Origin: Candidatus Fraserbacteria bacterium | GTDB taxonomy: Bacteria > Bipolaricaulota > Bipolaricaulia > RBG-16-55-9 > JAJCYT01 | Direction of reading: 5' to 3' | Assembly (NCBI GenBank): GCA_029262795.1 | Contig: JAJCYT010000018.1 | Location: 103,982-167,981 of the forward strand | Length of the DNA stretch: 64,000 nt | Part shown: positions 840 to 33,721 of the stretch, piece by piece | How the letters are laid out: each line of letters begins with the position of its first letter | Numbering within the stretch: position 1 is the first letter of the stretch | Notes under the pieces: model-generated | Seen by the model: only the letters and a program-made list of their open reading frames with translations | The model's database searches: none | Told to the model about the DNA's origin: nothing | Position numbers and translations under genes: made by a program

Positions 840-854
840 GAAAAAACCTTTCCT

Positions 855-8959: not shown

Positions 8960-8978
8960 CACAATTACGGAGGTTGGT

Positions 8979-12486: not shown

Positions 12487-12515
12487 GTTGTAGAAAAAAC
12501 AGGTTGTTTAGCGCG

Positions 12516-12556: not shown

Positions 12557-12718
12557 AAAGAAAATCAGTCAAAAACGAATAAAAAGCTTCAACCTCTCTC
12601 TTGATTTCCAAAGGGGGGCGCTTCATGAGAAAGTGAGTACAGTTAGACAGAGACGTTTGTTCTTATAACGCTTTATTTTTTTCGATTGTTTTTGAATTAA
12701 AAGGTTTGGGAAAAACAC

Positions 12719-13657
12719 GTGATTAAATTTCTTGTTGATCGACTGCTGATGATGGTTTTTGTGATGCTTGGCGCATCCATCCTCATCTTTTTGCTCATCC
12801 ATTTGGTCCCGGGTGATCCCGTACGCGGATCGTTGGGCGTGATGGTGTCGGAAGAGTTAATCGCAGACATGCGCGCCAAGCTTGGCCTGGATGATCCTTT
12901 ATACATTCAATATTTCAACTGGCTAGGGAAATTATTTCAAGGCGATTTGGGGACCTCTTTCCAAACGCTCGATCCGGTGACAGATCGTTTGATCATTGCT
13001 TTTCCAGTGAGTTTGGAACTGGTCAGCATTGCGCTGGTGTTTGCATTAATCGTTTCTGTACCGCTGGGCATTTTGGTCACCATATACCGTAAGTTCGATT
13101 TTGTTTTTATTTTTACCAGCATTGTGGGTTTGTCCATGCCCCAATTCTGGGTGGCAATTCTGTTGATTATATTTTTTGCCAATGAGTTGAGGTGGATCGA
13201 ATTTGGAGGATTTGTGTTTGCCTGGGAAGATCCTGTGAGACACTTTAAAGGCATGATTCTGCCGGTGCTCACTCTCGCTTTGCCGATGGTTGCCGTCACC
13301 ATGCGCATCACCCGCACCAGTATGCTGGAAGTGATTCAAAAAGATTACATCCGCACCATGCAAGCCGTAGGGCTTCCTGAAAAGCGCATTATTTTTACCC
13401 ACGTGCTCAAAAATGCACTGATCCCGATTGTCACCATTGTCGGCTTGCAGTTTGGTTATTTGTTGGGTGGTGCTGTCATTATCGAGCAAATTTTCGGCTT
13501 GCCCGGGCTGGGCAAGCTCATTTTGCAAAGCGCCTCCGCCAAAGATTATCCCATGATTCAGGCGGCCACTTTGGTCATCACATTCTGGTTTGTGCTGATT
13601 AATTTTTTAACGGACTTGCTGTATGCCTACCTCGATCCACGCATCAAATACGATTAG
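12719..13657 (+). CDS. ABC transporter permease (DppB/OppB-like)
   Basis: 312 aa, polytopic. The EAA-loop-like segment is IRTMQAVGLPEKRIIFTHVLKNALIP. GTG start. Confidence 0.85.
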   Translation: MIKFLVDRLLMMVFVMLGASILIFLLIHLVPGDPVRGSLGVMVSEELIADMRAKLGLDDPLYIQYFNWLGKLFQGDLGTSFQTLDPVTDRLIIAFPVSLELVSIALVFALIVSVPLGILVTIYRKFDFVFIFTSIVGLSMPQFWVAILLIIFFANELRWIEFGGFVFAWEDPVRHFKGMILPVLTLALPMVAVTMRITRTSMLEVIQKDYIRTMQAVGLPEKRIIFTHVLKNALIPIVTIVGLQFGYLLGGAVIIEQIFGLPGLGKLILQSASAKDYPMIQAATLVITFWFVLINFLTDLLYAYLDPRIKYD

Positions 13658-13663
13658 GAGGGA

Positions 13664-14788
13664 ATGGTGTCTGAACACAACGTAAATCTATTGGCTTTGG
13701 GCGATTTCATGCTGGAACACACTTTGGGCGAAAGCCCCTTTTATGGCCTCATCGAACAAAGCGATGTTTCTGTTGCCAATGTGGAAGCGCCGTTTACTGA
13801 TCAGGGCCACCCCGCTGATAAAACCGTTGCCATGAAAAGTCCGCCAGAAACGGCCAAAGAGCTTGGCCGAATTGGGCTCAATGTGGCCGCCGTTGCCAAC
13901 AATCATGCCATGGATTTTGGTATTGATGGCATGCGTCAAAATAAAAAGTTATTGGCTGAAGCGGGCGTTCATTGTGTGGGCACAGGCGAGAATATAGACG
14001 AAGCGATGCAGCCCGCCTTCGTTGAAAGCAACGGCTTAAAACTTGGATTTTTATCATTTTCTTCGACACTGCCCATTGGCACCAGCGCCGCCGCCAACCG
14101 TCCAGGCATGGCGCCGATCCGTGTTGAAACGTCGTATTTATTAGATTCATCCATTTGTGAAGAACAACCTGGCACCGCCCCGTATGTCTCAACCAGAGTC
14201 ATTGATGAAGAACTAGAGCGCGCTGTTGGTGTTGTCAAAGCAGCCAAAGCTCAATGTGACTCATTGATCATCGCCCTGCATTGGGGTGTGCCGGAAGGCT
14301 GGGCCACGCCTGCCCAAGGCTGGTTGGCCGATTATCAGCAACCATTGGGGCATGCACTGATTGATGCAGGTGCAGATGTGCTGACGGGATCTCATCCGCA
14401 CGTCACACACGGGATTGAAATTTACAAAGGCAAACCGATTCTTTATTGCCTTGGAAACTTTGCATCTCAATATTTTGCCAAAGGCCGGGTGGTTGAAATT
14501 GCCCGACCCATTGGCGGCTTCAAATTTGATCCAGGTGGATTTGATTTGTCCCGCTACGAAAAGGTTCCTGAACATGGCAAGGCGTTTGCTGCACGAATTG
14601 GTCTGCAAAAAAACAAAGTCAACGCCGTCGAAATCATGCCATACATTCTCGATCATCAAGGCGAGCCGCAATATGGTTCTGAGTCAGACCAGGCATCCAT
14701 CTTGGATCGGGTCGAAAACTTTTCATTGCAATTTGGAACAACATTTGAACGAACGGATCAAGGCACAGGCCTCATCAGGATTCAGTAA
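13664..14788 (+). CDS. CapA/PGA_cap-family (poly-gamma-glutamate capsule synthesis-like) metallophosphatase-fold protein
   Basis: 374 aa. Family pattern: LLALGDFML...VANVEAPF...VAAVANNHAMDFGIDGM...CVGTGENIDEA...LHWGVPEG. Confidence 0.7.
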   Translation: MVSEHNVNLLALGDFMLEHTLGESPFYGLIEQSDVSVANVEAPFTDQGHPADKTVAMKSPPETAKELGRIGLNVAAVANNHAMDFGIDGMRQNKKLLAEAGVHCVGTGENIDEAMQPAFVESNGLKLGFLSFSSTLPIGTSAAANRPGMAPIRVETSYLLDSSICEEQPGTAPYVSTRVIDEELERAVGVVKAAKAQCDSLIIALHWGVPEGWATPAQGWLADYQQPLGHALIDAGADVLTGSHPHVTHGIEIYKGKPILYCLGNFASQYFAKGRVVEIARPIGGFKFDPGGFDLSRYEKVPEHGKAFAARIGLQKNKVNAVEIMPYILDHQGEPQYGSESDQASILDRVENFSLQFGTTFERTDQGTGLIRIQ

Positions 14789-20135: not shown

Positions 20136-21158
20136 TTAATTTAAGATAATCAGTTGCTTCACATCGCTTCGTTCTACCTCTCCATTTGATTTGTGGATGG
20201 TGACCACATAAAAGTACACGCCATTGGCCAACCGTTGTCCATCCTGATTTAGGCCGTAAAAGCGCAGACTGTTACCATCTGAGCGATCTTCGAATACCAC
20301 CTGGCCGGAAGTGTCCATCATCATCAGTTCCACATCTTCCACGCCGTAGCCCAAGACAGTGATTGCCAGCTCACCTGGGCTAGGGGCTGTCACATTCAGA
20401 CTGATGGGCTCAGGGGCACGACCTGGGGCCAACACTTGAATTTCGTCAATGCCGCCAAACAGGCTTTGTACGCGCAGTTGATTTTCAAAACAGTAAACCA
20501 CACCACGATCCAAGCCCGTTAAAAAAGCGTTCATTCGCATGTCGGGAGAACCATGGGCATTGGGGTCATCATGTGGCGTGCCTTCAGGGTCGCCAAGCAC
20601 AAAGAACGTGTAAGCGCCTTCTTCCACATCCCCAGGATCCGCCAGCCCATCTTCAACCACGTGAGCCGTGTAAGCGCCAGTGAGGCAATCAGCCTGCAAC
20701 TCTGAATCAATGGTCATCATGGTGCCAAACAATCCAAGCTGACCTTGCAGCGCGTGACCCCACTCATGGCCCAAAATGGCGGCCACAGCAAAGTCGCCAA
20801 TTTCCTGAAGCAGGTAATCAAACAGTTCAGCATCATAAGAAATGGTGTGATCCAGTGAGCAGTAAAAAGCATTATTAGGAATAGATTCACCGCATTCAGT
20901 GTAGACAGGGTAGTTGGCTGTGTAAGGCTGCACCACATTAGGTGGAAAATATTCCAGGTTGTATTCAACAAACGTCTGGCGCCAGAAATTGTCGATGTCG
21001 TTAACGGCAAAATCTACCAAGTCGAACAAGTCCCAACCACCATCATGCTCGGGTGTAAAAATATCGAGTCGTTCAAATTCCTGTGCCTGAGCCAAGGTGG
21101 CTGTTCCAATGACCAAGACCAATAAAATGATTGTAATTTTCAAAAGCAAATGTTTCAT
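20136..21158 (-). CDS. secreted neutral zinc metallopeptidase (YpfJ/Zn_peptidase-like) with C-terminal sorting-like beta-sandwich domain
   Basis: 340 aa. Sec signal MKHLLLKITIILLVLVIGTATLAQAQE. HExxH site ILGHEWGHALQ. The C-terminal ~80 aa (LRFYGLNQDGQRLANGVYFYVVTIHKSNGEVERSDVKQLIILN) matches the C-termini of the 58056 and 60829 gene products. Confidence 0.7.
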   Translation of the reverse strand: MKHLLLKITIILLVLVIGTATLAQAQEFERLDIFTPEHDGGWDLFDLVDFAVNDIDNFWRQTFVEYNLEYFPPNVVQPYTANYPVYTECGESIPNNAFYCSLDHTISYDAELFDYLLQEIGDFAVAAILGHEWGHALQGQLGLFGTMMTIDSELQADCLTGAYTAHVVEDGLADPGDVEEGAYTFFVLGDPEGTPHDDPNAHGSPDMRMNAFLTGLDRGVVYCFENQLRVQSLFGGIDEIQVLAPGRAPEPISLNVTAPSPGELAITVLGYGVEDVELMMMDTSGQVVFEDRSDGNSLRFYGLNQDGQRLANGVYFYVVTIHKSNGEVERSDVKQLIILN

Positions 21159-21366
21159 GATTTTCTCCTTTACGCTTTTATTTGGTGTCGTTTTTAAACG
21201 CGGGTTTGAGCTACAAAGTGGCTCATTTCCCGGATGCGAAAGTTGAACTTAAACTAACTGGAATGCGTGACAATATCGTGACAGACCTTCTTTGAGTTGT
21301 TTCCCCAAAAAGCATCGTGTTACACTCAACAATGGGTTTAAATCAGGATGATGAGGGAGGTCTCTG

Positions 21367-23307
21367 ATGCTGCGAGCAAGCAGTTGGGGACGTATTTCGG
21401 TGTTGCTGTTTTTTTTCTTGGTCACACTGCTATCGGCACACACCAGCGTTCAGTCACAATCTGAAGATGCTGAGGTGATTGCCATTGCAACCGTGCTGGA
21501 TGTCGATGGCAATCGAGTCTTGGGCGATCGGGAAATATTGGAAGCAGTCAGATTGTGGATTGTGGGCATTTCCCCGCCAACACGAAATCAATCCATTCTG
21601 GACACACAAATTTTAGGACTTATTCGCTTATGGATCACAGGCGCCTTGCTGCCAGATGGGCCTTCATCACCCACCCTCCCCCCCGATGACGAGGAGGGGC
21701 CACACGAAGATGACCTGCCGAATGGAGCAGATGCCATCATTCAATCCCTGTCTCAAAGTTCTTCAAAATTATTTAAGACATTTGATAACATCAGGGCCAT
21801 CCGCTCCATGTTCAAAAACGATCTGGAAGATGAGATTGAAGATACCTTCATTCCAGGACTACGCGCCTATCACGACAGCCAACAAGTGTTAAACGACCTA
21901 ATAAGTGTGTGTCCTGCAGGGCCAATTCGGCGTGCTGATTTAATGGGCTTTATTGAAACCACAGAAGACATTGTAGATCTGGTCAAAAAAGATTTTAACG
22001 CAACCACACAATTTCAATCCGCCATAACCAGCTTTAATCAAGCACTGTCTATGTTTCTTGCTGACAACGATCCGCAAGCACTTCAGTTCACGTGCGGTGC
22101 AAACGGAGGTCAGATGTTTATGTCTCAAGGGCTCGACGGTCTGGCTGATCAATTGGGACTAATGGCCAGTGATTTTGCAACGCAGGCAAACGACATTGTG
22201 CTCGACTTGCAAAACTCAAAGACACAATTTCAGGATGTGACAACTGCATTCAAAAGCTTATTACAATCTGATATCCCTACCACCAGCGCACTGTTTGAAC
22301 ACCTTAACGGGGCGGCTGATATGATTGGCTCCTTCCTCATTGGCGCTGCTCTCAGTGACAGCATGGATGAAATTGGTGGCGTTCAACAATTGTTTTCGGT
22401 AGAAGACTTTGACCTGCCCAATCTCAATCCAAGCGAGATCATGCTGAAAACTGAAAATGCTGATGACAGCTTTAGTGATATTTTTTCACAAGAAGGAGAA
22501 TTTGGCTGGATGTTGAACGGGTTTCAATTCTATTTCTGTGGCGGCAAATATGTCACCATCATCGGCACGGAAGGCAATGACACCCTGAAAGGAAAAACCA
22601 AAGACCCCATCGATGGCATTGGCGGCACGGACAATGTGGATGACGTAATTTCCGGTCTGGGTGGTGACGACAATCTTACGGGACTTGGCGGCAATGACAT
22701 CATTTGTGGCGGCGATGGTGATGATAAAATCATCGGCAATGCTGGCAATGATCTCCTTTACGGTGGTCAAGGCGCAGATCAGATAGATGGCAGCGAAGGC
22801 CACGACCGCATTTATGGTGGGCCTGCTGACGACCTCATCTTGGGAGGCATTGGCCAGGATATTCTTTTTGGTGAAGGCAGCAACGACATCATCATTGCAG
22901 GCAATGGCTTAAATTCAGCAGATTTCGACATGGTGTTTGGCGGATATGGTGATGACAAACTCAATGGCGATGACGGTGTGGACTGGATTGATGGCGGACC
23001 AGGCCAGGACATTCTTGAAGGGAATGGCCATGATGACAGCATGTGGGGCGGCGATGGCGAAGACATCCTGCGTGGTGGCCCTGGAAACGACACCCTGGAG
23101 GGGGATGCTGCGGGTGGCACGGTGGACCTTTCCTTCCTACACCGTGACGAACTCTATGGTGATGCAGGCAACGATTTTCTGCTTGGCGGCTATGGTGGCG
23201 ACCTGCTGGTCGGGGGAGAAGGCCAGGATATTTGCAACGGTGGCAAGGCAGGCGGATTCCCCGACACCGCCTCGACCGATTGCGAGACTGTAAAAAATGT
23301 CCCTTAA
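21367..23307 (+). CDS. secreted protein with hemolysin-type (RTX) calcium-binding nonapeptide repeats
   Basis: 646 aa. N-terminal Sec-type signal. The C-terminal third consists of GGxGxDxxx repeats (GLGGDDNLTGLGGNDIICGGDGDDKIIGNAGNDLLYGGQGADQIDG...). I did not recognise the central helical domain. Confidence 0.75.
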   Translation: MLRASSWGRISVLLFFFLVTLLSAHTSVQSQSEDAEVIAIATVLDVDGNRVLGDREILEAVRLWIVGISPPTRNQSILDTQILGLIRLWITGALLPDGPSSPTLPPDDEEGPHEDDLPNGADAIIQSLSQSSSKLFKTFDNIRAIRSMFKNDLEDEIEDTFIPGLRAYHDSQQVLNDLISVCPAGPIRRADLMGFIETTEDIVDLVKKDFNATTQFQSAITSFNQALSMFLADNDPQALQFTCGANGGQMFMSQGLDGLADQLGLMASDFATQANDIVLDLQNSKTQFQDVTTAFKSLLQSDIPTTSALFEHLNGAADMIGSFLIGAALSDSMDEIGGVQQLFSVEDFDLPNLNPSEIMLKTENADDSFSDIFSQEGEFGWMLNGFQFYFCGGKYVTIIGTEGNDTLKGKTKDPIDGIGGTDNVDDVISGLGGDDNLTGLGGNDIICGGDGDDKIIGNAGNDLLYGGQGADQIDGSEGHDRIYGGPADDLILGGIGQDILFGEGSNDIIIAGNGLNSADFDMVFGGYGDDKLNGDDGVDWIDGGPGQDILEGNGHDDSMWGGDGEDILRGGPGNDTLEGDAAGGTVDLSFLHRDELYGDAGNDFLLGGYGGDLLVGGEGQDICNGGKAGGFPDTASTDCETVKNVP

Positions 23308-23400
23308 CTGAGTTTGACCAGCCCAATGCAAGTGAGAAAAAATTGACCTGACCCAAGTGAAGCGATAGGCTGTAGTTAAAGGTTGAGTCAAGGAGTCAAT

Positions 23401-23997
23401 ATGTCACAAGCGTCCAGTGATGTGACCGGTTTGTTGATGGCATGGAGCAGTGGCGATGAACGCGCTCAGGACAAGCTCATGCCGCTTGTGTATGAAGAAC
23501 TTCAGCAGATTGCCAGTCGTTATCTTCGTCGTGAGTACGTTGGTCACACCATGCAAACGGTCGATCTGGCCAACGAAGCCTACATGAAGCTGGTGGATCA
23601 GAATCAGGTAGACTGGAAAAATCGCGCTCATTTTTTCGGCATTGCCGCCAACATCATGCGTCGTATTCTGATTGATCAGGCTCGTAGTCGACAGGCAGTC
23701 AAGCGTGGTGGTGAGGTCAAGAAATTTTCCCTCGACCATGAAGCCGTTCAACTTTCCTATGTGGGCTTTTCGGAAGAACCCAACTTTGATCTGCTGGACC
23801 TGGACGATGCTTTGAAAGAACTGGCCGAATTCGATCCACGCCAGGGTAAACTTGTCGAACTCCGATTTTTTGGCGGACTGAGCATTGCCGAAACGGGCGA
23901 AGTGTTGGAAATCTCCCCCGCCACCGTCAAGCGCGAATGGAATGTCGCAAAAGCCTGGCTCAAACGCCGACTCAGCCAACACACCAATGACGCCTGA
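23401..23997 (+). CDS. ECF-type RNA polymerase sigma factor (kinase-associated class)
   Basis: Region 2 (PLVYEELQQIASRYLRRE...DLANEAYMKL) and region 4 (VELRFFGGLSIAETGEVLEISPATVKREWNVAKAWL) are present. I prefer the ATG at 23401, which has an AAGGAG RBS at 23390..23395, over the track TTG at 23383. Confidence 0.85.
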   Translation: MSQASSDVTGLLMAWSSGDERAQDKLMPLVYEELQQIASRYLRREYVGHTMQTVDLANEAYMKLVDQNQVDWKNRAHFFGIAANIMRRILIDQARSRQAVKRGGEVKKFSLDHEAVQLSYVGFSEEPNFDLLDLDDALKELAEFDPRQGKLVELRFFGGLSIAETGEVLEISPATVKREWNVAKAWLKRRLSQHTNDA

Positions 23998-26900
23998 ATT
24001 GTGGCAAAGGGTTAAAGAAGTTTTTGATCAGGCACTAGAAATTGCGCCTGATGAGCGATCCTCATTCTTAATCAAAGTCTGTGGTACTGATGCAACACTG
24101 AAAACCGAAGTTGAATCCCTGCTCGACACTTACAAAGAAGACGATGATTTTTTAGAAACCCCTGCTGCTGAAGTATTTGCATCAAAAATTGCGCCAAACA
24201 GCACAGCCAGTTTCAATGCGCCCCCCACTCAATTTGGACGATATCAGGTCATCAAGCCATTAGGACAGGGTGGCATGGCCACGGTCTATCAAGCGCAGGA
24301 CCCGACTTTGGATCGCCAGGTTGCCATCAAAGTGATCCATCCACATTTGGCGCACGAAGCCAATTTTGACCAGCGATTTTTACAGGAAGCCAAAACAGTC
24401 GCAGCCCTGAGCCACCCCAACATCATTCAGATTTTCGATCTGGACCTGATCGATGGGGCTCCCTTCATGGTGATGGAATGTCTCCAAGGCGGCACGCTCA
24501 AAGACAAACTGCATCAGCAGGGCGTTCTCGATTTGGAAATGATCATCCAATTGATTGAGCGAATGACGCAAGCGCTGGATGTGGCCCATCAACAGGACAT
24601 TATTCATCGAGACTTAAAGCCGGCCAATATATTGTTCAATGAACGAAATGAACCCATTCTGACCGATTTCGGTATCGCCAAGCTGATGACCGAAACTGTG
24701 CAACTCAGCGTCACCGGCAGTGCGGTGGGCACGCCAACCTACATGGCCCCTGAACAGGCAAAAGGCGATCACCCCACACCACAAAGTGACCTCTATGCCT
24801 TGGGCGTGATGCTGTATGAATTGATGACAGGCCGTGTGCCATTCCGAGGCGATTCTCCTATTGCCGTGGTGTTGCAACATTTGGAAGAACAGCCGGTTGC
24901 ACCCTCCACGCTTCAACCTGATTTGTCACAGGCAGTGGAGGCCGTCATCCTCAAAGCACTATCAAAATCACCACAGGATCGCTTTCAAAGTGCGATTGAG
25001 TTGTACGAAAGTTTCACTCAGGCAGTGCGTGACAAAGCAGATACATCAACCGCTTCAACAGTTCAGCCGCCACGAACTGTGCCTCAGCCTGAGCCTCGAA
25101 TTGAACAGCCAGTTGAAACCATTGAGCTCAACTTGCCTTTGCCAGCCACCCCATTCCTGGGGCGAGACAAAGAACTGGACGACATCAACACTGCATTTGC
25201 TGATTCAAATTGCCATTTGTTAAACCTGATTGGTCCTGGCGGCATAGGTAAAACACGTCTGGCTCTGAAAACAGCAGAAGCCCAGCACCTAAACTTTTTG
25301 CATGGGGTTGCTTTTGTCCCACTCGAAGCGGTGGCTTCCTCGCAACAGATCGTGACCAAAATTGCGGAATCAGTGCGCTTTAGTTTTTTCAATGCAAGAA
25401 ACCCCAAAACATTGCTGTTCGATTTTCTCAGCAACAAAGCCATGCTTCTGGTGCTGGACAACTTTGAACATTTGGTCGAGCATGCTGTGCTCATTTCAGA
25501 ACTGTTACAGCGCGCACCTGGAATCAAGGTGCTGACCACTTCCCGCGAACGGCTTCATCTTCAAGAGGAGTGGGTGATGGAATTGAATGGACTGCCCATT
25601 CCAGAATCTGCTTCGATGGATGCTTTGCAAGATCACACCTCAATTCAATTGTTCATCAATCAGGCCAAGCGTGGCAACGTGAATTTCACTCTCAATGAAG
25701 CAGGCCTTCCCGTTTTGCTCGACATTTGCCGCATGGTGGATGGGTTGCCATTGGGCATTGAGCTGGCTGCTGGTTGGAGCCGGATGCTGCCCATTTCCGA
25801 AATCGCAAAAGAGATCGAAAAGAATTTGGATTTCCTGGCCAGCAATGTACAAAATCTGCCCAAACGCCATCGCAGTCTGCGAGCAGTGTTCGATTATTCC
25901 TGGCAGCTTTTGTCTCAAGATGAACAAAGCGCATTTCAAAAACTTTGCCTGCTGCCAGCTTCGTTTGATCATCAGGCAGCATCCTATATTGCTGATGCTT
26001 CGCTGCCAACGCTGATGTCTTTGCTGGACAAATCTTTGTTGCGACAAAGCGACCAAGCCCATTACAAGGTGCCAAATTTATTACGACAGTTTGGTGAAGA
26101 AACATTGCGTCAACAGGGCCAGAGCTATCGTTTGACTCAAAGAAAATTCTGTACATATTTTTCAGAATTTCTCAATCACCGAGAAGCTCTTTTGCAATCC
26201 CCTGAACAAAAGTCTGTCTTGGATGAGATTCAAACATCATTGCCTCACTTGAGGCTCAGTTGGCAGTGGTCGGTGGATCAGGTGAAAGTTGAATGGCTGG
26301 ATCAATCACTTCATGCGTTTTTCCTGTTCTTTGAGAAAAAAGGGTTGTTCCGTGAAGGCTTGGAACTGTTTGAAAAGGCATTTCTTCAACTCAAAAAAGT
26401 CTCAACCAATGATGACCACCCTGCAACCCTGCTGTTGTTCAAACTCATGACCCGCCAAGGCCATCTGATGCGGCTGTTGAGTCTCAATCAAAAATCATTG
26501 GCATTGCTGCAAAAAAGTGCAGATCAACTGGCCATGCTCGATGCATCATCTGAATATGCGTTCACTTTAACTTCACTGGCCAACACGCAATTGCGCCTGG
26601 GACAAAGCGATCAGGCAGAAGCCACTTTTTCAAAAGCAATGGATGTTTATCAAGCCATTGACGACCCTATTGGCATGGCCAGTGTACTCAACGGCCTCAG
26701 CAACATCAGCTACCATTACGGCAATCTTGAAGATGCACAACGTAAGACTGAGGAAAGCCTGGCACTGCGACGTCAGGAAAATGATTTGGTGGGCGTCGCT
26801 GCATCACTCAACAATCTGGGAAACATCACCGGCGATCGCGGAGATTTGGAAAACTGCATCAGCTATTACGAGGAATCCTTGGACATCAAAAAGAAACTGG

Positions 26901-27619
26901 GTGAAAGCCTGGGCGTTGCCACCACACTGAACAATTTAGGCGCAACTTATGCCGTGTTTGGCGAATATGAAAAAGCTGTCTATTACCATAAACAATCGCT
27001 GGAAAACCATCGCAAAATTGGCGACCTGTGGGGCACAGCCACTTCAATCAGCAATATTGCACGCTGCTATCTGGACTTGAAACAATACGAGAAAAGTAAA
27101 CAAATGGAAGAAGAAAGCCTCATCATGCGTCAGGAAATTGGCGATATCCGTGGCATTGCCGTGTCTTACCATCATCTCGCCATTCTGGCCATCAAACAGG
27201 ATGATCTTGAAGCCGCCCAACCTCCCCTAAAGCAAGCACTTCAATACATCCGACAAGATGGAAATGCGACAGAAACGATTTCCATTCTCACCAACTGTGG
27301 ACATGTCAGTCGCAGGCAGAATGAAATTTTCACGGCCTGGGGCCATTTAATTGAGGCTCTAAAACTAACTCTAAAGATCAATGCGGGTCTCCTCAAAATG
27401 AGCGTATTGAACGAAATCGGCATGCTGCTTGTGGATACCGAGCATACCGGCCTGGCAATGAAATCACTCCAAGTGGTTGCCCAACATCCTGCCACCATTG
27501 AAGAAGTACGCCAAAAAGCACAAACTTTTTTGAGTCAATCAGATCCCCCCCTCCCGGAAACTTCGAAAGAGGTTGAGCTAGAAACTCTTGTTGAAAAGAT
27601 TTTAGACATTGATTTTTAA
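23987..27619 (+). CDS. soluble Ser/Thr protein kinase fused to STAND-type P-loop NTPase and TPR repeats
   Basis: Hanks motifs: GQGGMATVY, VAIKVI, HRDLKPANILF, DFGIAK, GTPTYMAPE. Walker A GPGGIGKTRLAL and Walker B LLVLDNFEH. The C-terminal TPR array has repeated LNNLG-type helices. I see no hydrophobic TM segment. The start ATG at 23987 (MTPELWQRVKEVF) overlaps the sigma gene by 11 nt. The track start at 23885 would lie inside the sigma CDS. Confidence 0.85.
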   Translation: MTPELWQRVKEVFDQALEIAPDERSSFLIKVCGTDATLKTEVESLLDTYKEDDDFLETPAAEVFASKIAPNSTASFNAPPTQFGRYQVIKPLGQGGMATVYQAQDPTLDRQVAIKVIHPHLAHEANFDQRFLQEAKTVAALSHPNIIQIFDLDLIDGAPFMVMECLQGGTLKDKLHQQGVLDLEMIIQLIERMTQALDVAHQQDIIHRDLKPANILFNERNEPILTDFGIAKLMTETVQLSVTGSAVGTPTYMAPEQAKGDHPTPQSDLYALGVMLYELMTGRVPFRGDSPIAVVLQHLEEQPVAPSTLQPDLSQAVEAVILKALSKSPQDRFQSAIELYESFTQAVRDKADTSTASTVQPPRTVPQPEPRIEQPVETIELNLPLPATPFLGRDKELDDINTAFADSNCHLLNLIGPGGIGKTRLALKTAEAQHLNFLHGVAFVPLEAVASSQQIVTKIAESVRFSFFNARNPKTLLFDFLSNKAMLLVLDNFEHLVEHAVLISELLQRAPGIKVLTTSRERLHLQEEWVMELNGLPIPESASMDALQDHTSIQLFINQAKRGNVNFTLNEAGLPVLLDICRMVDGLPLGIELAAGWSRMLPISEIAKEIEKNLDFLASNVQNLPKRHRSLRAVFDYSWQLLSQDEQSAFQKLCLLPASFDHQAASYIADASLPTLMSLLDKSLLRQSDQAHYKVPNLLRQFGEETLRQQGQSYRLTQRKFCTYFSEFLNHREALLQSPEQKSVLDEIQTSLPHLRLSWQWSVDQVKVEWLDQSLHAFFLFFEKKGLFREGLELFEKAFLQLKKVSTNDDHPATLLLFKLMTRQGHLMRLLSLNQKSLALLQKSADQLAMLDASSEYAFTLTSLANTQLRLGQSDQAEATFSKAMDVYQAIDDPIGMASVLNGLSNISYHYGNLEDAQRKTEESLALRRQENDLVGVAASLNNLGNITGDRGDLENCISYYEESLDIKKKLGESLGVATTLNNLGATYAVFGEYEKAVYYHKQSLENHRKIGDLWGTATSISNIARCYLDLKQYEKSKQMEEESLIMRQEIGDIRGIAVSYHHLAILAIKQDDLEAAQPPLKQALQYIRQDGNATETISILTNCGHVSRRQNEIFTAWGHLIEALKLTLKINAGLLKMSVLNEIGMLLVDTEHTGLAMKSLQVVAQHPATIEEVRQKAQTFLSQSDPPLPETSKEVELETLVEKILDIDF

Positions 27620-27674
27620 CAATCTTTAATTCTGTTCTTCACTTAAGCAATCCATTCAAAAAACTCCTTATGAT

Positions 27675-27773
27675 CCATGAGCCACTTATGCGCTTTTTTT
27701 CGCGTTGGTTAGTTGAGGCGAAATGAACATGAATTTTTTAATCAACAACAGCAACGAGAAAGGGCACATAATG
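27675..27773 (+). promoter_or_regulatory. conserved 99-nt upstream/leader element, copy 1
   Basis: CCATGAGCCAC, 15 nt, then the 33-nt core CGCGTTGGTTAGTTGAGGCGAAATGAACATGAA (27701..27733), continuing to GAAAGGG and the ATG at 27771. The length and register are the same as in copies 2 and 3. Confidence 0.6.
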
Positions 27774-28460
27774 AAACATTCCACACTTAAAAACACAGGA
27801 CTCGCCATGATGGCTTTGGTCTTAATTTCAATTTTGGTCACCGGTTGCGGTGGCAGAAACACCCCACAAGCCAATGGCCAACCTGGCCAACAATCCGCAC
27901 AAACCCTCAACAACGCGCTGCTACAGGGTCAAACACAAGGTAGTGTTCGTTCAGTGATCGGCAACAATTCTCAGATTCAGGGCCAGCCACAGGGCGGTTT
28001 TCAAAATGGTCAGTTGAACAACAATCGCCCGACCAATGGCCAACCTCAAGGCTTGGGTCAAGCCATGAGCACAGGGTTCCAGAATGGTCAGGCTCAGCCC
28101 AACCAACCGCAGGGATTGGCACAACAATCTTACGGGCAGTCCTCTTATGGCAATTCAGGATACGGTCAGCCCATGGCGCAACCCAACAATGGCTGGAACA
28201 TGCCACAGAATTCATACAACGATCCTTACTTCGGTAACTTTGAAGACTGCGGCTGCTTCGATAACTTTGAAGATTATGGATTGAAAGACTTCGGTGAAGA
28301 TGTTGAAGAGCTTATAGGTTGGATCAACCCCTTCGACGACAATGAAAATTCCAACCAAGCCACAGACTATTACTGGATGAACGATGCCACCGGCATGGTC
28401 GTGGTCACGCAATCCCCCCAACCTCCCGCACAAGGGTTTGTTTTAGCTGAACAGAACTAA
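27723..28460 (+). CDS. Q/G/N-rich lipoprotein (short paralogue of the next two genes)
   Basis: Lipobox LVTGC. Low-complexity Gln/Gly/Asn-rich body. C-terminal DYYWMNDATG motif. Alternative start at ATG 27771 (MKHSTLK) behind GAAAGGG. Confidence 0.7.
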   Translation: MNMNFLINNSNEKGHIMKHSTLKNTGLAMMALVLISILVTGCGGRNTPQANGQPGQQSAQTLNNALLQGQTQGSVRSVIGNNSQIQGQPQGGFQNGQLNNNRPTNGQPQGLGQAMSTGFQNGQAQPNQPQGLAQQSYGQSSYGNSGYGQPMAQPNNGWNMPQNSYNDPYFGNFEDCGCFDNFEDYGLKDFGEDVEELIGWINPFDDNENSNQATDYYWMNDATGMVVVTQSPQPPAQGFVLAEQN

Positions 28461-28490
28461 ACGTTAGCGCGTTTCCAAGTCACGGTGAAA

Positions 28491-28522
28491 GGGTGAGTTA
28501 AACCTCATCCTTTTGCTTTTTT
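28491..28522 (+). terminator. rho-independent terminator of lipoprotein cassette 1
   Basis: GGGTGAG (28491..28497) pairs with CTCATCC (28504..28510). This is 7 bp including one G-U pair. TTTTGCTTTTTT follows. Confidence 0.6.
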
Positions 28523-28538
28523 AAAGTTTCCATACGTT

Positions 28539-28637
28539 CCATGAGCCACCTTTGAGCTTTTTTCCGCGTTGGTTAGTTGAGGCGAAATGAACATGAAATT
28601 TTTAACAAACAACAGCAACGCGAAAGGGCACAACATG
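28539..28637 (+). promoter_or_regulatory. conserved 99-nt upstream/leader element, copy 2
   Basis: Same CCATGAGCCAC box, identical 33-nt core and GAAAGGG, ending at the ATG at 28635. It begins 17 nt after the cassette-1 terminator. Confidence 0.6.
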
Positions 28638-29816
28638 AACAACATCAAACGCAATGACATCGGCTTGGGAATAATCACTTTGGTTTTGATTGCAGTGTTG
28701 ATCACCGGGTGCGGCGGAAATAACAACGCTCAGACAAATCAACAAAGTGGATTCGTCACACAATCCACCGCTTTGAATCCAGCCCTGCAACAGCAGATGC
28801 AGGCCCAGGGCATTGAAGTGACACAAGTTCAGCAAACACAACAGCCAATGAGCGCACCACAACTCAATCAGCAATCCAGAAATGATGCAAATGTGAATTT
28901 TGTTCGATACACCGATCCCACACAACATGCGTTCACCGTGGATGTGCCACAGGGTTGGACCAACCAGGGTCGCACAAAAGGCATCAAAAATGAAATCACG
29001 TCGCTTTCCCCAGATGGCATGATCCTGATTCAAAACGGTGATGTGAGTTTGCCGGAGTACGTGGAAGCCTCTGCTTATCAGCCAGCCACCGCACCAGGTC
29101 AGTGCCAGAATTTTTATGGTGCCTGCTTCGAGGTGCGTCCTTTTACCAGCGGTATTCAGTTTGCGGCAGAGTATGTGGGCTATAAATTTGGCCAGATTTG
29201 TCAAAACCTCAGCTTTACTGGCCAACGCAAACGTCCGGACTGGGAACAATACATCGGCCAAATTCTTCAAGTGGATCAGATCAATGCCACAGGATATGGC
29301 ATGCAGATGGGATTGGACGCAGGCGAAGTGGATTTCACCTGCACCCTGAACGGCCAACAGATGCGCGGCACCTACATGCTTGTCAATCGTTTCATGCGCT
29401 TTGCCGATGGCATGGGCGGCAATTATGGTTCCTGGGAACCTTACCTGCTCTCAGGATTTGTAGCCCCTGCCCACCAAACAGACCTGGCTTTGGCCATCTC
29501 AAATCGTGCCCAAAACAGTTTTAAACTCGATCAAAACTGGCTCAATGCGCAGGCCAGAGCCAACCGCCAGAGCATGCAGCAACGAAGTTCCATTCTTGAT
29601 AACAGCACCAGCAGTAGTGGTAGCAGTGACAACTACGATCGTTACAATCAGATGATGCGCGGCACCACCAATTTGTACAATTCGGAAACGGGTGAAACGC
29701 AATACAACGTGGACAACAACAGCAATTACTACTGGCAGAATTCTGGCAGCACCTATGGCACAGACCTCAATGAAACATCCGATCCATTTGCCACGCAGTT
29801 AGAACAACAATATTAA
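28587..29816 (+). CDS. lipoprotein of unknown family (paralogue of 29951..31237)
   Basis: 409 aa. Lipobox LITGC followed by a Gln-rich linker. The globular part starts FVRYTDPTQHAFTVDVPQGWTNQGRT. C-terminal NYYWQNSGSTYGT motif. Alternative start at 28635. Confidence 0.75.
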   Translation: MNMKFLTNNSNAKGHNMNNIKRNDIGLGIITLVLIAVLITGCGGNNNAQTNQQSGFVTQSTALNPALQQQMQAQGIEVTQVQQTQQPMSAPQLNQQSRNDANVNFVRYTDPTQHAFTVDVPQGWTNQGRTKGIKNEITSLSPDGMILIQNGDVSLPEYVEASAYQPATAPGQCQNFYGACFEVRPFTSGIQFAAEYVGYKFGQICQNLSFTGQRKRPDWEQYIGQILQVDQINATGYGMQMGLDAGEVDFTCTLNGQQMRGTYMLVNRFMRFADGMGGNYGSWEPYLLSGFVAPAHQTDLALAISNRAQNSFKLDQNWLNAQARANRQSMQQRSSILDNSTSSSGSSDNYDRYNQMMRGTTNLYNSETGETQYNVDNNSNYYWQNSGSTYGTDLNETSDPFATQLEQQY

Positions 29817-29847
29817 ACTCCACTCAGACGCAGGCACAACCAAGGCC

Positions 29848-29890
29848 AGAAGCATCAAGCGAACCTTGCTTGGTGCTTCTGTTTATTTTT
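29848..29890 (+). terminator. rho-independent terminator of lipoprotein cassette 2
   Basis: 13-bp stem: AGAAGCATCAAGC (29848..29860) pairs with GCTTGGTGCTTCT (29868..29880), with one G-U pair. GTTTATTTTT follows. Confidence 0.7.
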
Positions 29891-29902
29891 ATCCGGCAAA
29901 TT

Positions 29903-30001
29903 GCATGAGCCACGCTTGACTCTTTTTGCGCGTTGGTTAGTTGAGGCGAAATGAACATGAAATTTTTAATCAATAACAGCAACACGAAAGGACGCACAAT
30001 G
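29903..30001 (+). promoter_or_regulatory. conserved 99-nt upstream/leader element, copy 3
   Basis: GCATGAGCCAC box, identical 33-nt core and GAAAGGA, ending at the ATG at 29999. It begins 13 nt after the cassette-2 terminator. Confidence 0.6.
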
Positions 30002-31237
30002 AAACATTCAAAACACATCAGCTTCAGTTTGGCCATGTTAATCCTGGTCTGCATGTTGATCAGCGGTTGCGGTGGTGGCGTAAGCAACCAGCAGGTGCTT
30101 CAATCCCAGCAAAACGGATTTATTGCGCCACAGGGAATGCCAAATCAGCAATTGGCTCAGCAACTTCAGGGTGGATTCACACAGCCTGTGGGCAACTCCA
30201 ACACGCAGCCACAAGCCCAGCAACAAACCCGAACGTCCATCAACCATCAGCAGGGACAACGCAGCATGAACGCAAACGGGATAACCTTCACACGCTTTAG
30301 TGAACCAACCCAAGGTGCTTTCAGCGTCGAAGTGCCTCAAGGCTGGTCCACCACAGGCCGCACGGTGAACAATAAACACGAAGTCCAAACATTTTCCCCT
30401 GACAACCTTGTGGGTATCCAGGCTGGTGACGTGAGTCTCTCATCATTCATGGAACCAAGCGCCACCACACCACCCATCGGTCAATGTCATTATTATCTGG
30501 GGCAGTGCATCCAGGTGGAACCGTTTATGAATGGCGTTCAATTCGCAACAGAATATCTCAAGCAGGATTTGGCTGAAGCAGGGTCGTGTCAGCATTTGAC
30601 ATTCTCTAATCAACGTCAGCGTCCGGACTGGGAGCAGATGGTTGCTCAGGCATTGCAAGTGGACGCCTACCGCCAGATGGGAATGCAAATGCAGGTCAGT
30701 GCCGGCGAGGTGGACTTTATTTGCCAGACTCAGGGATTGCCCGTTCATGGCCGATATCTGGCCGTCACCACCCTCACCCGCATGAGTGACAACATGGGAA
30801 CAAGCCTGAGTATGTGGGAACCTTACATGATCATGGGCTATGCCGCCGTGCCTGAACGTTTAAACGAAGCCCAGGCCGTGCTGGCTCGCATGGAAAGCAC
30901 ATTTCAGTTGAACTCAAACTGGACCACGGCTTACAACAATGCATCTCAGCAAGGGTTTCAACAGCGCCAACAGGCCATTAATCAATCAAACGCCTACACC
31001 AACAATGCCATCATCAGTACAGGTGAAAACTACAACGCCACGATGGACGACCTCAGTCGTCAGCGTTCCAACACCATGCGCGGCACCACCGATGTGGTCA
31101 ATCCCTACACCGGCCAAACCTGGAACGTGGAAAGTGGCAGTGAATCCTACTGGTATGATCCCGTTTACGGCAACACTTATGGTTCCAACACCTACGAATC
31201 ACCCGATGCCTGGTATGAACCTTTGAATCAATATTGA
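29951..31237 (+). CDS. lipoprotein of unknown family (paralogue of 28587..29816)
   Basis: 428 aa. Lipobox LISGC followed by a Gln-rich linker. FTRFSEPTQGAFSVEVPQGWSTTGRT aligns with the previous gene. C-terminal SESYWYDPVYGNTYGS. Alternative start at 29999. Confidence 0.75.
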   Translation: MNMKFLINNSNTKGRTMKHSKHISFSLAMLILVCMLISGCGGGVSNQQVLQSQQNGFIAPQGMPNQQLAQQLQGGFTQPVGNSNTQPQAQQQTRTSINHQQGQRSMNANGITFTRFSEPTQGAFSVEVPQGWSTTGRTVNNKHEVQTFSPDNLVGIQAGDVSLSSFMEPSATTPPIGQCHYYLGQCIQVEPFMNGVQFATEYLKQDLAEAGSCQHLTFSNQRQRPDWEQMVAQALQVDAYRQMGMQMQVSAGEVDFICQTQGLPVHGRYLAVTTLTRMSDNMGTSLSMWEPYMIMGYAAVPERLNEAQAVLARMESTFQLNSNWTTAYNNASQQGFQQRQQAINQSNAYTNNAIISTGENYNATMDDLSRQRSNTMRGTTDVVNPYTGQTWNVESGSESYWYDPVYGNTYGSNTYESPDAWYEPLNQY

Positions 31238-31261
31238 AGCCAGCAAAAAAATGAAATACCC

Positions 31262-31300
31262 AGGGACAGCTTACAATTTATGGGCTGTCCCTTTCTGTCT
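31262..31300 (+). terminator. rho-independent terminator of lipoprotein cassette 3
   Basis: AGGGACAGC (31262..31270) pairs with GCTGTCCCT (31284..31292). This is 9 bp with a 13-nt loop, followed by TTCTGTCT. Confidence 0.55.
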
Positions 31301-31417
31301 ATGAAAATTTCTTGATTGAAATCCATTTCCATTTCCTGAGACATGCCCCTTTTGAGAGTGATTGATGTCCTTACGGACAATTCAACCGCTTTGTTACCAT
31401 GATTACATTGGGATAGT

Positions 31418-33721
31418 TTGCGATATTTTAATCAGGAACTGGAGCATTCATTGAAACGTTTGGGACATTTAAAACTTGGGTTATTTTTATTGTTTGCAGG
31501 CATGTTGGTTTCCTTCTTTTTGAGCCATGTCGCTTTGGCACAGCCCTCTGAAAAGTCGCTTAAAAATGCGTTGGAAACGTCTTTTTGGTATGCCTATTCA
31601 AATGTGGAATCTTTACTGCTCAACTCAGGGTTGGGCGTCAAAAATGACGACCTGGAATTGATCGTTGATGCCGAATTACTCAAGAGCCTGAAATTGAGAG
31701 AAAGATTCCCACTCCAGGCCCCTTATTTGTCCGGCACCCCCACCTTTGCTCAAACGCCAGACGATGGAGATCCTGAAACACTTCGATGGGTGGACGCCTC
31801 TGTCAACGAAGAAACAGCGTTGGAAACGCTCAGTTATGCCATTATTGCCGAACTGTCCTGGGCCAGTCGTTTTCAACAATTGGCCGAGCATGAATCGGGC
31901 AAGGCCAGTGTCTTTGCCCGACAACAAACGCAGTTGTTTGTAGAAATGGCACAGGCATCGGCGGAGTTTGTTGAGCAACAGATGAAGCGTGAGGATGGCC
32001 TTTACTGGCACAGCCTGCGCTGGTGGCAGGACATTGTGGTTCAAAATGAGGCCGACGATTGGCGAGGCCATCTGGCCTGGCTCTGGTCCTTGTCTGTGAT
32101 GATGTCGTTTGAGCAAAACAATGAACAAACACCATTGACTCTGCCTTCAGCCAATCTGGCACATGCACTATTTGCCCAATTAAAAGATGCTGTTGCCTGG
32201 GATGCACTCACCATTGAAGACGCTTCCTTGGCGGTTAAAGCCTTGAGTTGGTTTCTGGTGTACTGCAAAGACTCACTCGATCAGGAAGAAGCCATCGAGC
32301 GCTTGAATATGGTGCTCGATTCGCTGGCACAAGCGGCCCAAACCACTCAGTCAAGCTCAAAACAGGCGGCCCTCATCAGTGGATTGCTTCAGGGGGCGCA
32401 CTTGCTGGGCGACAATTATTATCAAACGACTGCGCTTAAAGTGTGGCAGCAACTGTCGCAACACTGGAACAATCAATGGTTTGTGTTTGCAGACAATGAT
32501 GCGGTGTTTCCATTTGACTTAACATTGAAGCAGGCAGGGGAATTTTTGTCCGCCTTTCACAGCCTGATCTACATTGTGGATGATGCGGTTGCAAAAGATA
32601 TTTTTCCAAAGTTTTTTGCGACGCTAAGGGCATCAAAGCTGCAAGTGGCAGAAGTGGCGCAAGCAGGCGGTGCATTTGAAAGCAATTCAGCAATAACCAA
32701 AGACCGAGAAAACGCTGCTCCTGTACTGATCAGCCATGTGCGCTTAACCGAATCAGGCTGGGAAATTATCGATGGGCGATTCCGTTCAACCGAAGCGCTG
32801 TTTGCCAGCAACCTGCTGCTTTGGCTGAGCCAATTTCAGGCCGAATCTTTTGCTGGCCCCCCCGCCTTTGGATTTCCAGAAGATGCGATGGTGAAACAAA
32901 ATCAAGTCCCGCGACGCCTGCAAGCTTTATCCGATGAGCTTAAACAAACACAGCAGCAACTCGAGCAACTGAATCAACAACTGGCCCAGGTGAATCAGAA
33001 CGCAGCCGGTTCAGGCACTGCTGCGCAGCAAGGGGCTTTGGATCAGTTGGCAGCCGACATGGAGCGCTTTGAGCAGGATGTGCAAGTCGAACTTCAAGCG
33101 CTTCGGCAAAGTGTTCAGACCACAGGCAGCGACGATGCTCAGGTAAGCGCCCTTCAAAATCAGCTCAGCAGTTTGCAATCGCAATTGACGCCTTTGCAAA
33201 ATCAGTTCAATCAACTGTTGCCCCAAATCGAACAGCAGAACCAGCGTTTTTCAAATCTGGAACAACAACTGCAAGCCGTTCAAACCGATCTGGCATCCGA
33301 AGTGCAAAAATTATTGGACGCAGCCAATAGCCAACCCAACACCGCTTTGCTGGACAACCGCTTTACCCAACTGGAACAGGAATTGACCTCAAAGTTTGAT
33401 CCGCTCACAGAAAGCCTGGCATTGTTTGATCAGCAATTGAATCAGGTCAATGATTTTCAGGAAAATTTCAGCGAGCTAAACAACGCCTTTTTGGCTTTGA
33501 AATCAAGATTGGATTCGATTGAACAAATCGACACAGGTGCTGAGCTATTTGGATTAAGTCAGTCAGAACTTCTGTTGCTCGGCGTGTTGATTCTGGGCAT
33601 TGTGCTGGTCACCATCGGTCTGCTTCGCCTGCGCCAGCAGCGGCAGTTGCTTCAGGCCACCACCAATGTGATCTCAGATGCCGTCACGCCAGGATCGGTC
33701 AACTCGCCTTCAGACCGTTAA
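31418..33721 (+). CDS. tail-anchored envelope protein: signal peptide, helical globular domain, long Gln-rich coiled coil, C-terminal TM
   Basis: 767 aa. Hydrophobic N-terminus LGLFLLFAGMLVSFFLSHVALAQ. Heptad-like Q/L-rich region of ~220 aa (LKQTQQQLEQLNQQLAQVNQ...). C-terminal TM LLLLGVLILGIVLVTIGLLRLRQQRQ. The N-domain is paralogous to 49326..50675. The start is uncertain (TTG). Confidence 0.65.
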   Translation: MRYFNQELEHSLKRLGHLKLGLFLLFAGMLVSFFLSHVALAQPSEKSLKNALETSFWYAYSNVESLLLNSGLGVKNDDLELIVDAELLKSLKLRERFPLQAPYLSGTPTFAQTPDDGDPETLRWVDASVNEETALETLSYAIIAELSWASRFQQLAEHESGKASVFARQQTQLFVEMAQASAEFVEQQMKREDGLYWHSLRWWQDIVVQNEADDWRGHLAWLWSLSVMMSFEQNNEQTPLTLPSANLAHALFAQLKDAVAWDALTIEDASLAVKALSWFLVYCKDSLDQEEAIERLNMVLDSLAQAAQTTQSSSKQAALISGLLQGAHLLGDNYYQTTALKVWQQLSQHWNNQWFVFADNDAVFPFDLTLKQAGEFLSAFHSLIYIVDDAVAKDIFPKFFATLRASKLQVAEVAQAGGAFESNSAITKDRENAAPVLISHVRLTESGWEIIDGRFRSTEALFASNLLLWLSQFQAESFAGPPAFGFPEDAMVKQNQVPRRLQALSDELKQTQQQLEQLNQQLAQVNQNAAGSGTAAQQGALDQLAADMERFEQDVQVELQALRQSVQTTGSDDAQVSALQNQLSSLQSQLTPLQNQFNQLLPQIEQQNQRFSNLEQQLQAVQTDLASEVQKLLDAANSQPNTALLDNRFTQLEQELTSKFDPLTESLALFDQQLNQVNDFQENFSELNNAFLALKSRLDSIEQIDTGAELFGLSQSELLLLGVLILGIVLVTIGLLRLRQQRQLLQATTNVISDAVTPGSVNSPSDR

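Follow-up and report, generated by a model that had tools for sequence, protein, structure and literature searches.

We have analyzed a stretch of 64,000 nucleotides (nts) from a Candidatus Fraserbacteria bacterium (contig JAJCYT010000018.1, positions 103,982 to 167,981), which we refer to as the window, and in it a locus where the gene for an extracytoplasmic function (ECF) sigma factor is directly followed by the gene for a Ser/Thr kinase, and then by three lipoprotein genes, each in a cassette of its own. In our reading, which we consider probable from the comparison of sequences, the sigma factor and the kinase form a pair of the ECF43 type, in which the kinase carries a STAND (signal transduction ATPase with numerous domains) NTPase and a tetratricopeptide repeat (TPR) array, and the sigma factor reads a two-box promoter found at the head of four units for exported proteins: the three lipoproteins and a secreted peptidase. 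The coordinates of the features are given in Table 1.

Table 1. Features of the sigma-kinase locus, with positions in the window.
Feature	Position	Strand	Basis
Secreted neutral Zn-metallopeptidase (YpfJ-like) with CHU_C/type IX secretion system (T9SS) sorting domain, predicted fourth regulon member	20136..21158	-	
Two-box motif, fourth copy, TGAGCCAC-N15-CGCGTT	21197..21225	-	exact match to the pattern of the three cassettes
Sigma-70-like promoter candidate of the sigma-kinase operon, TTGACC-N17-TAGGCT	23343..23371	+	read from sequence
ECF sigma factor of TIGR02999/PF07638 (ECF43-like) type, 198 aa	23401..23997	+	profile matches
Soluble Hanks Ser/Thr kinase with STAND (NB-ARC) NTPase and TPR, 1210 aa, N-terminal segment of ~85 aa	23987..27619	+	open reading frame (ORF), domain scan
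Two-box promoter-like motif, cassette 1	27678..27706	+	
Lipoprotein 1: signal peptide, Q/G/N-rich linker and C-terminal YYW module, without the central domain; likely start ATG 27729	27723..28460	+	
Intrinsic terminator, cassette 1: hairpin with 14-pair stem, T run	28484..28517	+	
Two-box promoter-like motif, cassette 2	28542..28570	+	
Lipoprotein 2: central domain predicted to be PsbP/Mog1-like, and C-terminal YYW module; likely start ATG 28593	28587..29816	+	
Intrinsic terminator, cassette 2: hairpin with 16-pair stem, T run	29847..29881	+	
Two-box promoter-like motif, cassette 3	29906..29934	+	
Lipoprotein 3: paralogue of lipoprotein 2 (41% identity)	29951..31237	+	
Terminator, cassette 3: hairpin with 12-pair stem, weaker T tail	31262..31292	+	

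The sigma factor matches the profiles PF07638 (E-value 9e-58, residues 6-192) and TIGR02999 (215.8 bits, with a cut-off of 126), and it has the two-domain make-up of the ECF43 profile, sigma-2 plus sigma-4. It belongs to a very populated family: more than 8000 relatives score at E <= 1e-10, many of them labelled "TIGR02999 family" by their source, and the closest homologues come from metagenome-assembled genomes (MAGs) of Acidobacteriota (Blastocatellia). Only 93 nts separate the sigma gene from the gene upstream. The kinase gene, which starts at an ATG, overlaps the end of the sigma gene by 11 nts (ATGACGCCTGA), and no anti-sigma domain is found in the neighbouring genes of the window that were scanned.

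This arrangement is conserved. We compared eight other independent sigma loci (L009, L010, L012, L133, L136, L062, L063, and L035), and in all eight a Hanks kinase gene comes directly after the sigma gene, often overlapping it. One of these loci, L009, belongs to the closest relative of the window, together with L001, which holds the lipoprotein cluster of that relative; the sigma factor in L009 is 92% identical to the one in the window and the kinase 71% identical, and the translational coupling between the two genes is kept in both genomes of the lineage. A co-encoded Hanks kinase, the lack of an anti-sigma factor, and a sigma factor activated through direct phosphorylation are the hallmarks of ECF43, as found in EcfP/PknT and EcfK/PknS (PMC8999054, PMC13147305, PMC7826278), and the first two of them are seen here in the adjoining kinase and the neighbouring genes scanned. 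A preliminary description of this DNA, made by reading the letters, had reported the overlap of the sigma gene with a 1210-aa kinase-STAND-TPR protein free of transmembrane (TM) segments, and the absence of an anti-sigma gene, and it had pointed to ECF sigma factors controlled by a partner Ser/Thr kinase, such as EcfP/PknT of group ECF43. The ORFs, the domain scans, the hydropathy, and the profile matches bear out the first two points and place the sigma factor in that class.

The kinase protein consists of a Pkinase domain (residues 86-334, E-value 1.1e-52), an NB-ARC/AAA_16 domain (about residues 389-638), and four TPR_12 matches. The NB-ARC match has an E-value of 2.4e-7 over residues 398-638, next to matches to AAA_16 and, in part, to TPR_MalT. 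The Hanks motifs are complete (GQGGMATV at 93, VAIK at 112, HRDLKPAN at 207, DFG at 227, and APE at 254), and the NTPase has the motifs of a STAND protein, with a Walker A motif (GPGGIGKT at 416) and a Walker B-like motif (LLVLDN at 487). The highest Kyte-Doolittle mean over 19 residues is 1.37, versus more than 2.0 for the signal peptides nearby, and therefore no membrane segment is predicted. There is no DNA-binding domain in the protein.

How unusual is such a partner for a sigma factor? In the closest sigma homologues (L010, L133, L136, L012, and L035) the partner is a receptor kinase, with a single TM helix close to residue 410 and with TPR or PD40 domains outside the cytoplasm. Neither the window kinase nor its orthologue has a membrane helix; in both, the STAND-TPR module takes its place. 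The architecture itself is widespread in metagenomes, where 7624 proteins match the window kinase at E <= 1e-20, many from Chloroflexota, and most of the best 120 of these combine a Pkinase domain with a STAND-type NTPase and TPRs. A soluble protein of this kind is also known from M. tuberculosis, PknK, and sequence matches of the window kinase reach into the TPR regions of AfsR and PH0952. The claim of the preliminary description that the combination could not be mapped to any described system thus does not survive, since the pair is of the ECF43 type and the kinase-NB-ARC-TPR fusion is common.

Nor is the coupling of such a fusion to an ECF sigma factor, which the same description counted as part of that combination, particular to this locus. 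The sigma-linked kinases have in common an N-terminal segment of about 60 amino acids, ERWQQIK..F..A.E.....R..FL..AC..D..L..EVE.LL, which is seen in the kinases of the eight loci compared and in residues 1-85 of the window kinase (23987-24240), and in only 5 of the best 120 kinase-STAND-TPR homologues. Three of these five STAND-type kinases are from outside the window lineage (P0390, P0298, and P0326), and each of the three directly follows a PF07638 sigma gene. Thus, the soluble STAND-type partner is a recurrent variant, although our literature search found no paper on one. The segment may be a sigma-docking module. As a separate observation, the lipoprotein cluster of the relative has as a neighbour a gene for a guanylate/adenylate cyclase-STAND-TPR protein (L001 13999-16617, minus strand), and L136 has a similar gene (1-1654, plus strand) at 8 kb from its sigma gene, so that STAND-TPR signalling proteins recur in these neighbourhoods.

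The evidence for a promoter comes from the 5′ ends of the cassettes. Three blocks of 98 nts (27678-27775, 28542-28639, and 29906-30003) are 86-90% identical to each other, while the encoded proteins are only ~41% identical. Inside the blocks, a 33-nt core occurs exactly three times in the window and nowhere else in it, with 0 matches in shuffled sequence. The preliminary description had assigned to each lipoprotein gene a 99-nt upstream element and a terminator of its own; genes, elements, and terminators are all where it placed them, but the element is not wholly upstream, as its last ~50 nts are coding and specify the long n-region of the signal peptide, M(N)MKFLxNNSNxKGxxM.

At its core, each block has a motif of two boxes, TGAGCCA-N16-CGCGTT. 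When the six copies of the cassettes are aligned, three from the window and three from L001, the boxes are invariant and the spacer between them is T-rich and variable in sequence, with a fixed length: TGAGCCA(C/T)-N15-(G/C)CGCGTT. Downstream of the motif come about 8 variable nts, then the Shine-Dalgarno sequence and the start codon. The three cassettes are not the only places with this wiring. A fourth copy, outside the region covered by the preliminary description, stands ahead of a peptidase gene located two genes before the sigma gene. The encoded peptidase matches PF04228 (6.4e-19), PF13585, and NF050010, and has an N-terminal signal peptide. From the end of box 2 to the start codon there are 16 nts in the cassettes and 38 nts at the peptidase gene, and all four genes are for exported proteins.

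The strict motif has those four copies in the window, all within 6 kb of the sigma gene, and each on the strand of its gene. For the 10-base core of the motif, shuffled sequences give 0.22 matches per window, compared to the 4 observed. The peptidase copy is kept at the orthologous site of the relative (L009 7340-7368, minus strand), where the boxes are the same while the spacer and the flanks have diverged.

We also observe the motif next to homologous sigma factors in unrelated genomes. In the relaxed form TGAGCC(A/G)-N16-CGCGTT there are 8 sites in the two related genomes, and another 4 exact sites plus 1 with one mismatch in three unrelated sigma loci. L010, with a sigma factor 60% identical to that of the window, has three copies, one of them with a single mismatch, located 41-48 nts upstream of the genes that flank the sigma-kinase pair (for a DUF4190 protein, an M48 peptidase, and a 141-aa protein). 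L133, from Blastocatellia, and L136, both with a sigma factor 58% identical, have one exact motif each, 55 nts from the sigma gene at the head of a divergent gene in the first case, and 109 nts from it and pointing away in the second. At all three loci the motifs 55-109 nts from the sigma gene are directed away from it, and the target genes are unrelated. As a background, loci that lack such a sigma factor, about 1.4 Mb in total, give only 6 matches, of which about 4 are independent.

Two boxes at a fixed spacing that recur beside the cognate sigma factor are what one expects of an ECF-type promoter. We take this as strong comparative evidence for a sigma subclade that reads the two boxes as its -35 and -10 elements, and it speaks for a local regulon made up of the peptidase gene and the three cassettes. 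In L136, the exact motif (9841-9869) is followed by a divergent cluster (8121-9869, minus strand), whose products include several small exported proteins as well as LspA (Peptidase_A8), the lipoprotein signal peptidase, which hints at a lipoprotein/envelope theme for the subclade.

The sigma gene itself has no copy of the two-box motif upstream, neither in the window nor in the relative, and we reject autoregulation through this motif. Instead, it has a sigma-70-like promoter candidate, kept upstream of the orthologous gene in L009 as TTGACG-N17-TAGGCT (TTGACS-N17-TAGGCT as a consensus of both genomes). This arrangement fits with a sigma factor that would be synthesized constitutively and gated after translation.

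The observations that weigh against our proposal concern, on one hand, how the sigma factor would be switched on, and on the other hand, whether the pair and the cassettes belong together at all. Regarding the switch, in region sigma-2.2 of ECF43 the acidic DAED motif is replaced by an uncharged [S/Q]TTA, and the second Thr is the phospho-acceptor (PMC8999054, PMC13147305). The window sigma factor departs from this replacement, with QTVD (Q52-T53-V54-D55) where the nearest homologues have Q[TAS][TS][AG]. The acceptor column (position 54) of the 119 nearest homologues has T/S in 113 (95%), A in 3, and V in 3, and QTVD is confined to the window lineage (3 of the 119 sequences). The canonical phospho-acceptor of ECF43 is gone, replaced by Val54, a fact that the preliminary description overlooked, and the fourth motif position keeps an Asp (Asp55); therefore, the mechanism of EcfP cannot be transferred here unchanged.

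An alternative is that the wiring is as we propose, and that the sigma factor is not gated by the canonical threonine: with Asp55 restored and Val54 at the place of the acceptor, it could be largely constitutive, or it could be gated at another site (Thr53 or Ser110), or controlled by docking or sequestration through the N-terminal segment of the kinase. For EcfK, the T51A mutant is still functional, and phosphosites in the linker are used (PMC13147305). Both Thr53 and the linker residue Ser110 are present in the window sigma factor as candidate phosphosites, and the column of Ser110 is S/T in 76% of the homologues. The N-terminal segment, present in all the sigma-linked kinases examined and rare among the best kinase homologues, also speaks for this alternative. 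Against it, the window kinase retains all its catalytic motifs, and the gene pair is still translationally coupled in both lineage genomes, which argues for a functional kinase-substrate relation. On balance we consider a sigma factor gated in some such other way rather unlikely, although well worth keeping in mind.

Regarding whether pair and cassettes belong together, in the closest relative a block of eight unrelated genes (~4.8 kb, on both strands; L001 2150-8878 / L009 14216-20594) lies between the kinase and the lipoprotein cluster. The block, which is not in the window, has genes for a 77-aa ORF, SBP_bac_5, peptidase M24, HTH_3, a 159-aa ORF, enoyl-CoA hydratase, DUF805, and a 140-aa ORF. 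Therefore, the adjacency of kinase and cassettes is not conserved, even if the cluster is still within ~5 kb of the kinase. In 113 loci with distant homologues of the lipoproteins, taken from GTDB genomes and JGI metagenomes, there is a TIGR02999 sigma factor in 2 and an adjoining kinase in 3, which is not clearly above chance, and we reject a general co-localization of the lipoprotein family with ECF/kinase pairs. The two-box motif is not found beside the sigma gene in L012, L062, and L063, that is, in 3 of the 9 independent sigma loci. In addition, GAGCC is unlike the usual "AAC" of an ECF -35 box, and we found no published ECF43 promoter motif to compare it with, in a literature search that did not cover Iyer et al. 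2020 or the supplement of Casas-Pastor et al.

Could the pair and the cassettes then be mere neighbours, with the two-box motif used by another sigma factor or by a transcription factor encoded elsewhere? The eight-gene block, the 2 of 113 homologue loci, the 3 of 9 sigma loci, and the sigma gene without a motif of its own would all be at ease with that. On the other side stand the exact motifs 55-109 nts from homologous sigma genes in three unrelated loci with different targets, the rarity of the motif in sigma-free loci, and the concentration of all the window copies within 6 kb of the sigma gene. There is also evidence from the lipoprotein family itself. L035 (an Acidobacteriaceae MAG, 6694-14027) has a family member (356 aa, lipobox FAGC) flanked on one side by a sigma/TM-kinase pair and on the other by a second kinase gene, with all of them on the same strand and the partial motif TGAGCCG-N16-CGCATA 45 nts upstream of the family member; and L048 has a family member beside a sigma-kinase pair with the partial motif CCAGCCT-N16-CGCGTTA. 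Wiring of this kind may therefore have arisen more than once. With both sides in view, we find it improbable that pair and cassettes are only neighbours. The suggestion of the preliminary description that the cassettes are the regulon of this sigma factor emerges with comparative support and with some limits: it gains from the motif at a fourth exported-protein gene and at three unrelated sigma loci, and it loses from the gap in the relative and from gene neighbourhoods, a check that the description itself had proposed and where the sigma-kinase pairing holds in 8 of 8 other loci while the linkage of distant lipoprotein homologues does not.

The 5′ blocks could also be the mere trace of a recent tandem duplication or of gene conversion, with no regulatory role. 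The three lipoprotein genes are tandem paralogues, and the copies of the block, which in the relative are at L001 8956, 9949, and 11314, are slightly more alike within one genome (86-90%) than between the two genomes (78-86%), with orthologous pairs no closer than the others. The pattern indicates some concerted evolution and hints at gene conversion limited to the 5′ ends of the paralogues. But the blocks keep their similarity while the proteins have drifted down to ~41% identity, the boxes are invariant in six copies while the spacer varies, and boxes with equal spacing are also found at a non-paralogous gene and in unrelated genomes, all of which makes a block with no regulatory role very improbable. 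Two other candidates were tried on the same DNA. We reject that the conserved block holds a leader RNA or a riboswitch, as an Rfam search of the block reports no match, there is no conserved structure, and the leader has less structure than its shuffled versions (z = +2.3). A weak fourth 21-nt repeat at 31426-31446 was judged to be chance.

Finally, STAND NTPases that carry TPR sensors are frequent in defence systems, and the PADLOC models PD-T4-6, mad6, MkoA, and PglW match the window kinase protein, but since these matches span only the generic kinase domain (residues ~80-370) and not the STAND/TPR part, the other genes match nothing, the partner that is conserved, an ECF sigma factor, belongs to a signalling class already known, and the predicted targets are exported proteins of housekeeping type, we reject the reading of the kinase protein as an anti-phage or innate-immunity-like sensor in a defence locus, for which we see hardly any chance.

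The three predicted targets downstream of the kinase are lipoproteins by the reading of hydropathy and motif ([LVI][ASTVI][GAS]C after a signal peptide): the lipoboxes are LVTGC, LITGC, and LISGC in lipoproteins 1 to 3, each after a hydrophobic core with a Kyte-Doolittle mean of 2.1-2.5. The hairpins of the three cassettes begin 24-31 nts past the stop codons, as expected for intrinsic terminators. The lipoproteins have no match in Pfam or NCBIfam, and yet the family they define by the central domain and the C-terminal module has 1872 cluster representatives at E <= 0.001, all unannotated. A profile hidden Markov model (HMM) of the family matches lipoprotein 1 at its N-terminus and C-terminus only; with the same HMM we rejected as a family member a 483-aa gene that follows the STAND-type kinase of L062.

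For lipoprotein 2, an AlphaFold model built from only 6 sequences has a block-mean predicted local distance difference test (pLDDT) score of 47-93, mostly 70-93, for residues 101-330. The best structural matches of the central domain in Foldseek are PsbP (cyanobacterial and plant), LpqN and MTC28 of M. tuberculosis, and DcrB of Salmonella. These matches (2xb3, 1v2b, 4ol4, 6e5d, and 6e8a) have a probability of 0.95-1.0 and a target-normalised TM-score of 0.35-0.55, with an identity of about 10%. Two of the matched proteins, LpqN and DcrB, are lipoproteins of the cell envelope. The output of the system can fairly be called "envelope-related", and the resemblance of the modelled fold to LpqN and DcrB would be a weak argument for the "envelope remodelling" of the preliminary description.

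Several other features surround the locus. Between the peptidase gene and the sigma gene, in both genomes, there is a gene for an RTX calcium-binding repeat protein with a signal peptide (21367-23307, plus strand), without a two-box motif. The peptidase-RTX intergenic region has a direct repeat TGTCACG-N4-TGTCACGCA (21264-21283, minus-strand reading), kept in the relative (L009 ~7400-7420), which may be the binding site of a regulator or part of the RTX promoter. The relative has in addition a 104-aa ORF with two TM segments between the RTX gene and the sigma gene, not present in the window. The product of the gene after the third cassette (31418-33721, plus strand) is a protein of 767 aa that begins with a hydrophobic segment at the N-terminus, continues with a long Q-rich coiled-coil region, and has a TM helix at the C-terminus. 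The gene lacks the two-box motif, and a sigma-70-like promoter candidate of its own is at 31352-31381. Farther away, a c-di-GMP-I riboswitch (RF01051, 49128-49206, minus strand) scores 61 bits versus a gathering score of 35, upstream of an ORF at 47554-48936 (minus strand).

From the layout of the genes, and from the motifs and the genomes in which they occur, we infer how the system might work with respect to phosphorylation, promoter recognition by the sigma factor, the signal sensed, and the function of the lipoproteins. The sigma-kinase operon, translationally coupled, would be read from its housekeeping-type promoter, and the activity of the sigma factor would be switched after translation by the kinase. 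In this cytoplasmic variant of the kinase, the STAND NTPase and the TPR array would replace the usual TM helix and periplasmic sensor, and may sense an intracellular ligand or protein by nucleotide-dependent switching. The active sigma factor is predicted to read TGAGCC(A/G)-N16-CGCGTT, with the boxes as -35 and -10 elements, at the head of four putative monocistronic units: three for paralogous lipoproteins, two of them with a predicted PsbP/Mog1/LpqN/DcrB-like domain, and one for the YpfJ-like Zn-metallopeptidase. With lipoproteins and a secreted peptidase as targets, the output would therefore be a small set of exported cell-envelope proteins.

More tentatively, a wider claim could be made: an ECF43-like subclade present in several phyla would read a so far unreported promoter, TGAGCC-N17-CGCGTT, and in this lineage it would be driven by a cytoplasmic STAND/TPR kinase in place of a membrane receptor kinase. 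The sigma factor, having lost the canonical phospho-threonine, would then be an "extracytoplasmic function" factor that answers to a cue from inside the cell by way of a STAND switch and, activated at a non-canonical site, turns on a secreted peptidase and lipoproteins with a predicted PsbP fold. We regard the claim in this full form as quite possible, and would not yet lean on it.

To our knowledge, detailed studies of kinase-controlled ECF sigma factors exist for only two, EcfP and EcfK, and the kinases of both are membrane receptors. The locus is a test case for several questions. Which promoter does this very large family of sigma factors read, now that a concrete motif is predicted? Can sites other than the canonical threonine gate such sigma factors? 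And how can a cytoplasmic STAND/TPR module feed an ECF pathway? The locus also opens a first way into the regulation of an unannotated, widespread lipoprotein family with a predicted PsbP fold.

Compared with known systems, the predicted lipoproteins are like LpqN and MTC28 of Mycobacterium and DcrB of Salmonella in being lipid-anchored exported proteins, and the central domain may have a PsbP/Mog1-type fold like theirs; they are unlike them in having a Q-rich linker, a long n-region in the signal peptide, and a conserved C-terminal YYW module. The kinase protein has the same order of domains as PknK-type proteins and AfsR, MalT, and PH0952 (an effector domain such as a kinase, followed by an NB-ARC/AAA_16 NTPase and by TPRs), but it lacks a DNA-binding domain, and its output would presumably go through the co-encoded sigma factor.

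As in EcfP-PknT of Vibrio parahaemolyticus and EcfK-PknS of Xanthomonas citri, the kinase gene is directly downstream of the sigma gene and there is no anti-sigma gene among the neighbouring genes scanned. The sigma factor belongs to the same profile family as the homologues with the published QTTA consensus, and the window kinase has a segment of ~85 aa before the catalytic domain, like PknS with its N-terminal extension of 83 aa (PMC13147305). Unlike PknT and PknS, the window kinase has no membrane helix or periplasmic domain, and has a cytoplasmic STAND NTPase and TPR array; unlike the STTA, QTTA, or QATE of ECF43, the window sigma factor has QTVD, with Val at the place of the characterized phospho-threonine; and the predicted targets are lipoproteins and a peptidase, not the polymyxin-resistance or type VI secretion system (T6SS) genes of EcfP and EcfK. 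As judged from its genes, the pair of sigma factor and kinase falls as a variant within a known class, ECF43, and is no new kind of system. What is noteworthy here is the soluble STAND-TPR kinase, the sigma factor without the canonical phospho-threonine, and the promoter prediction across lineages for lipoprotein and peptidase genes.

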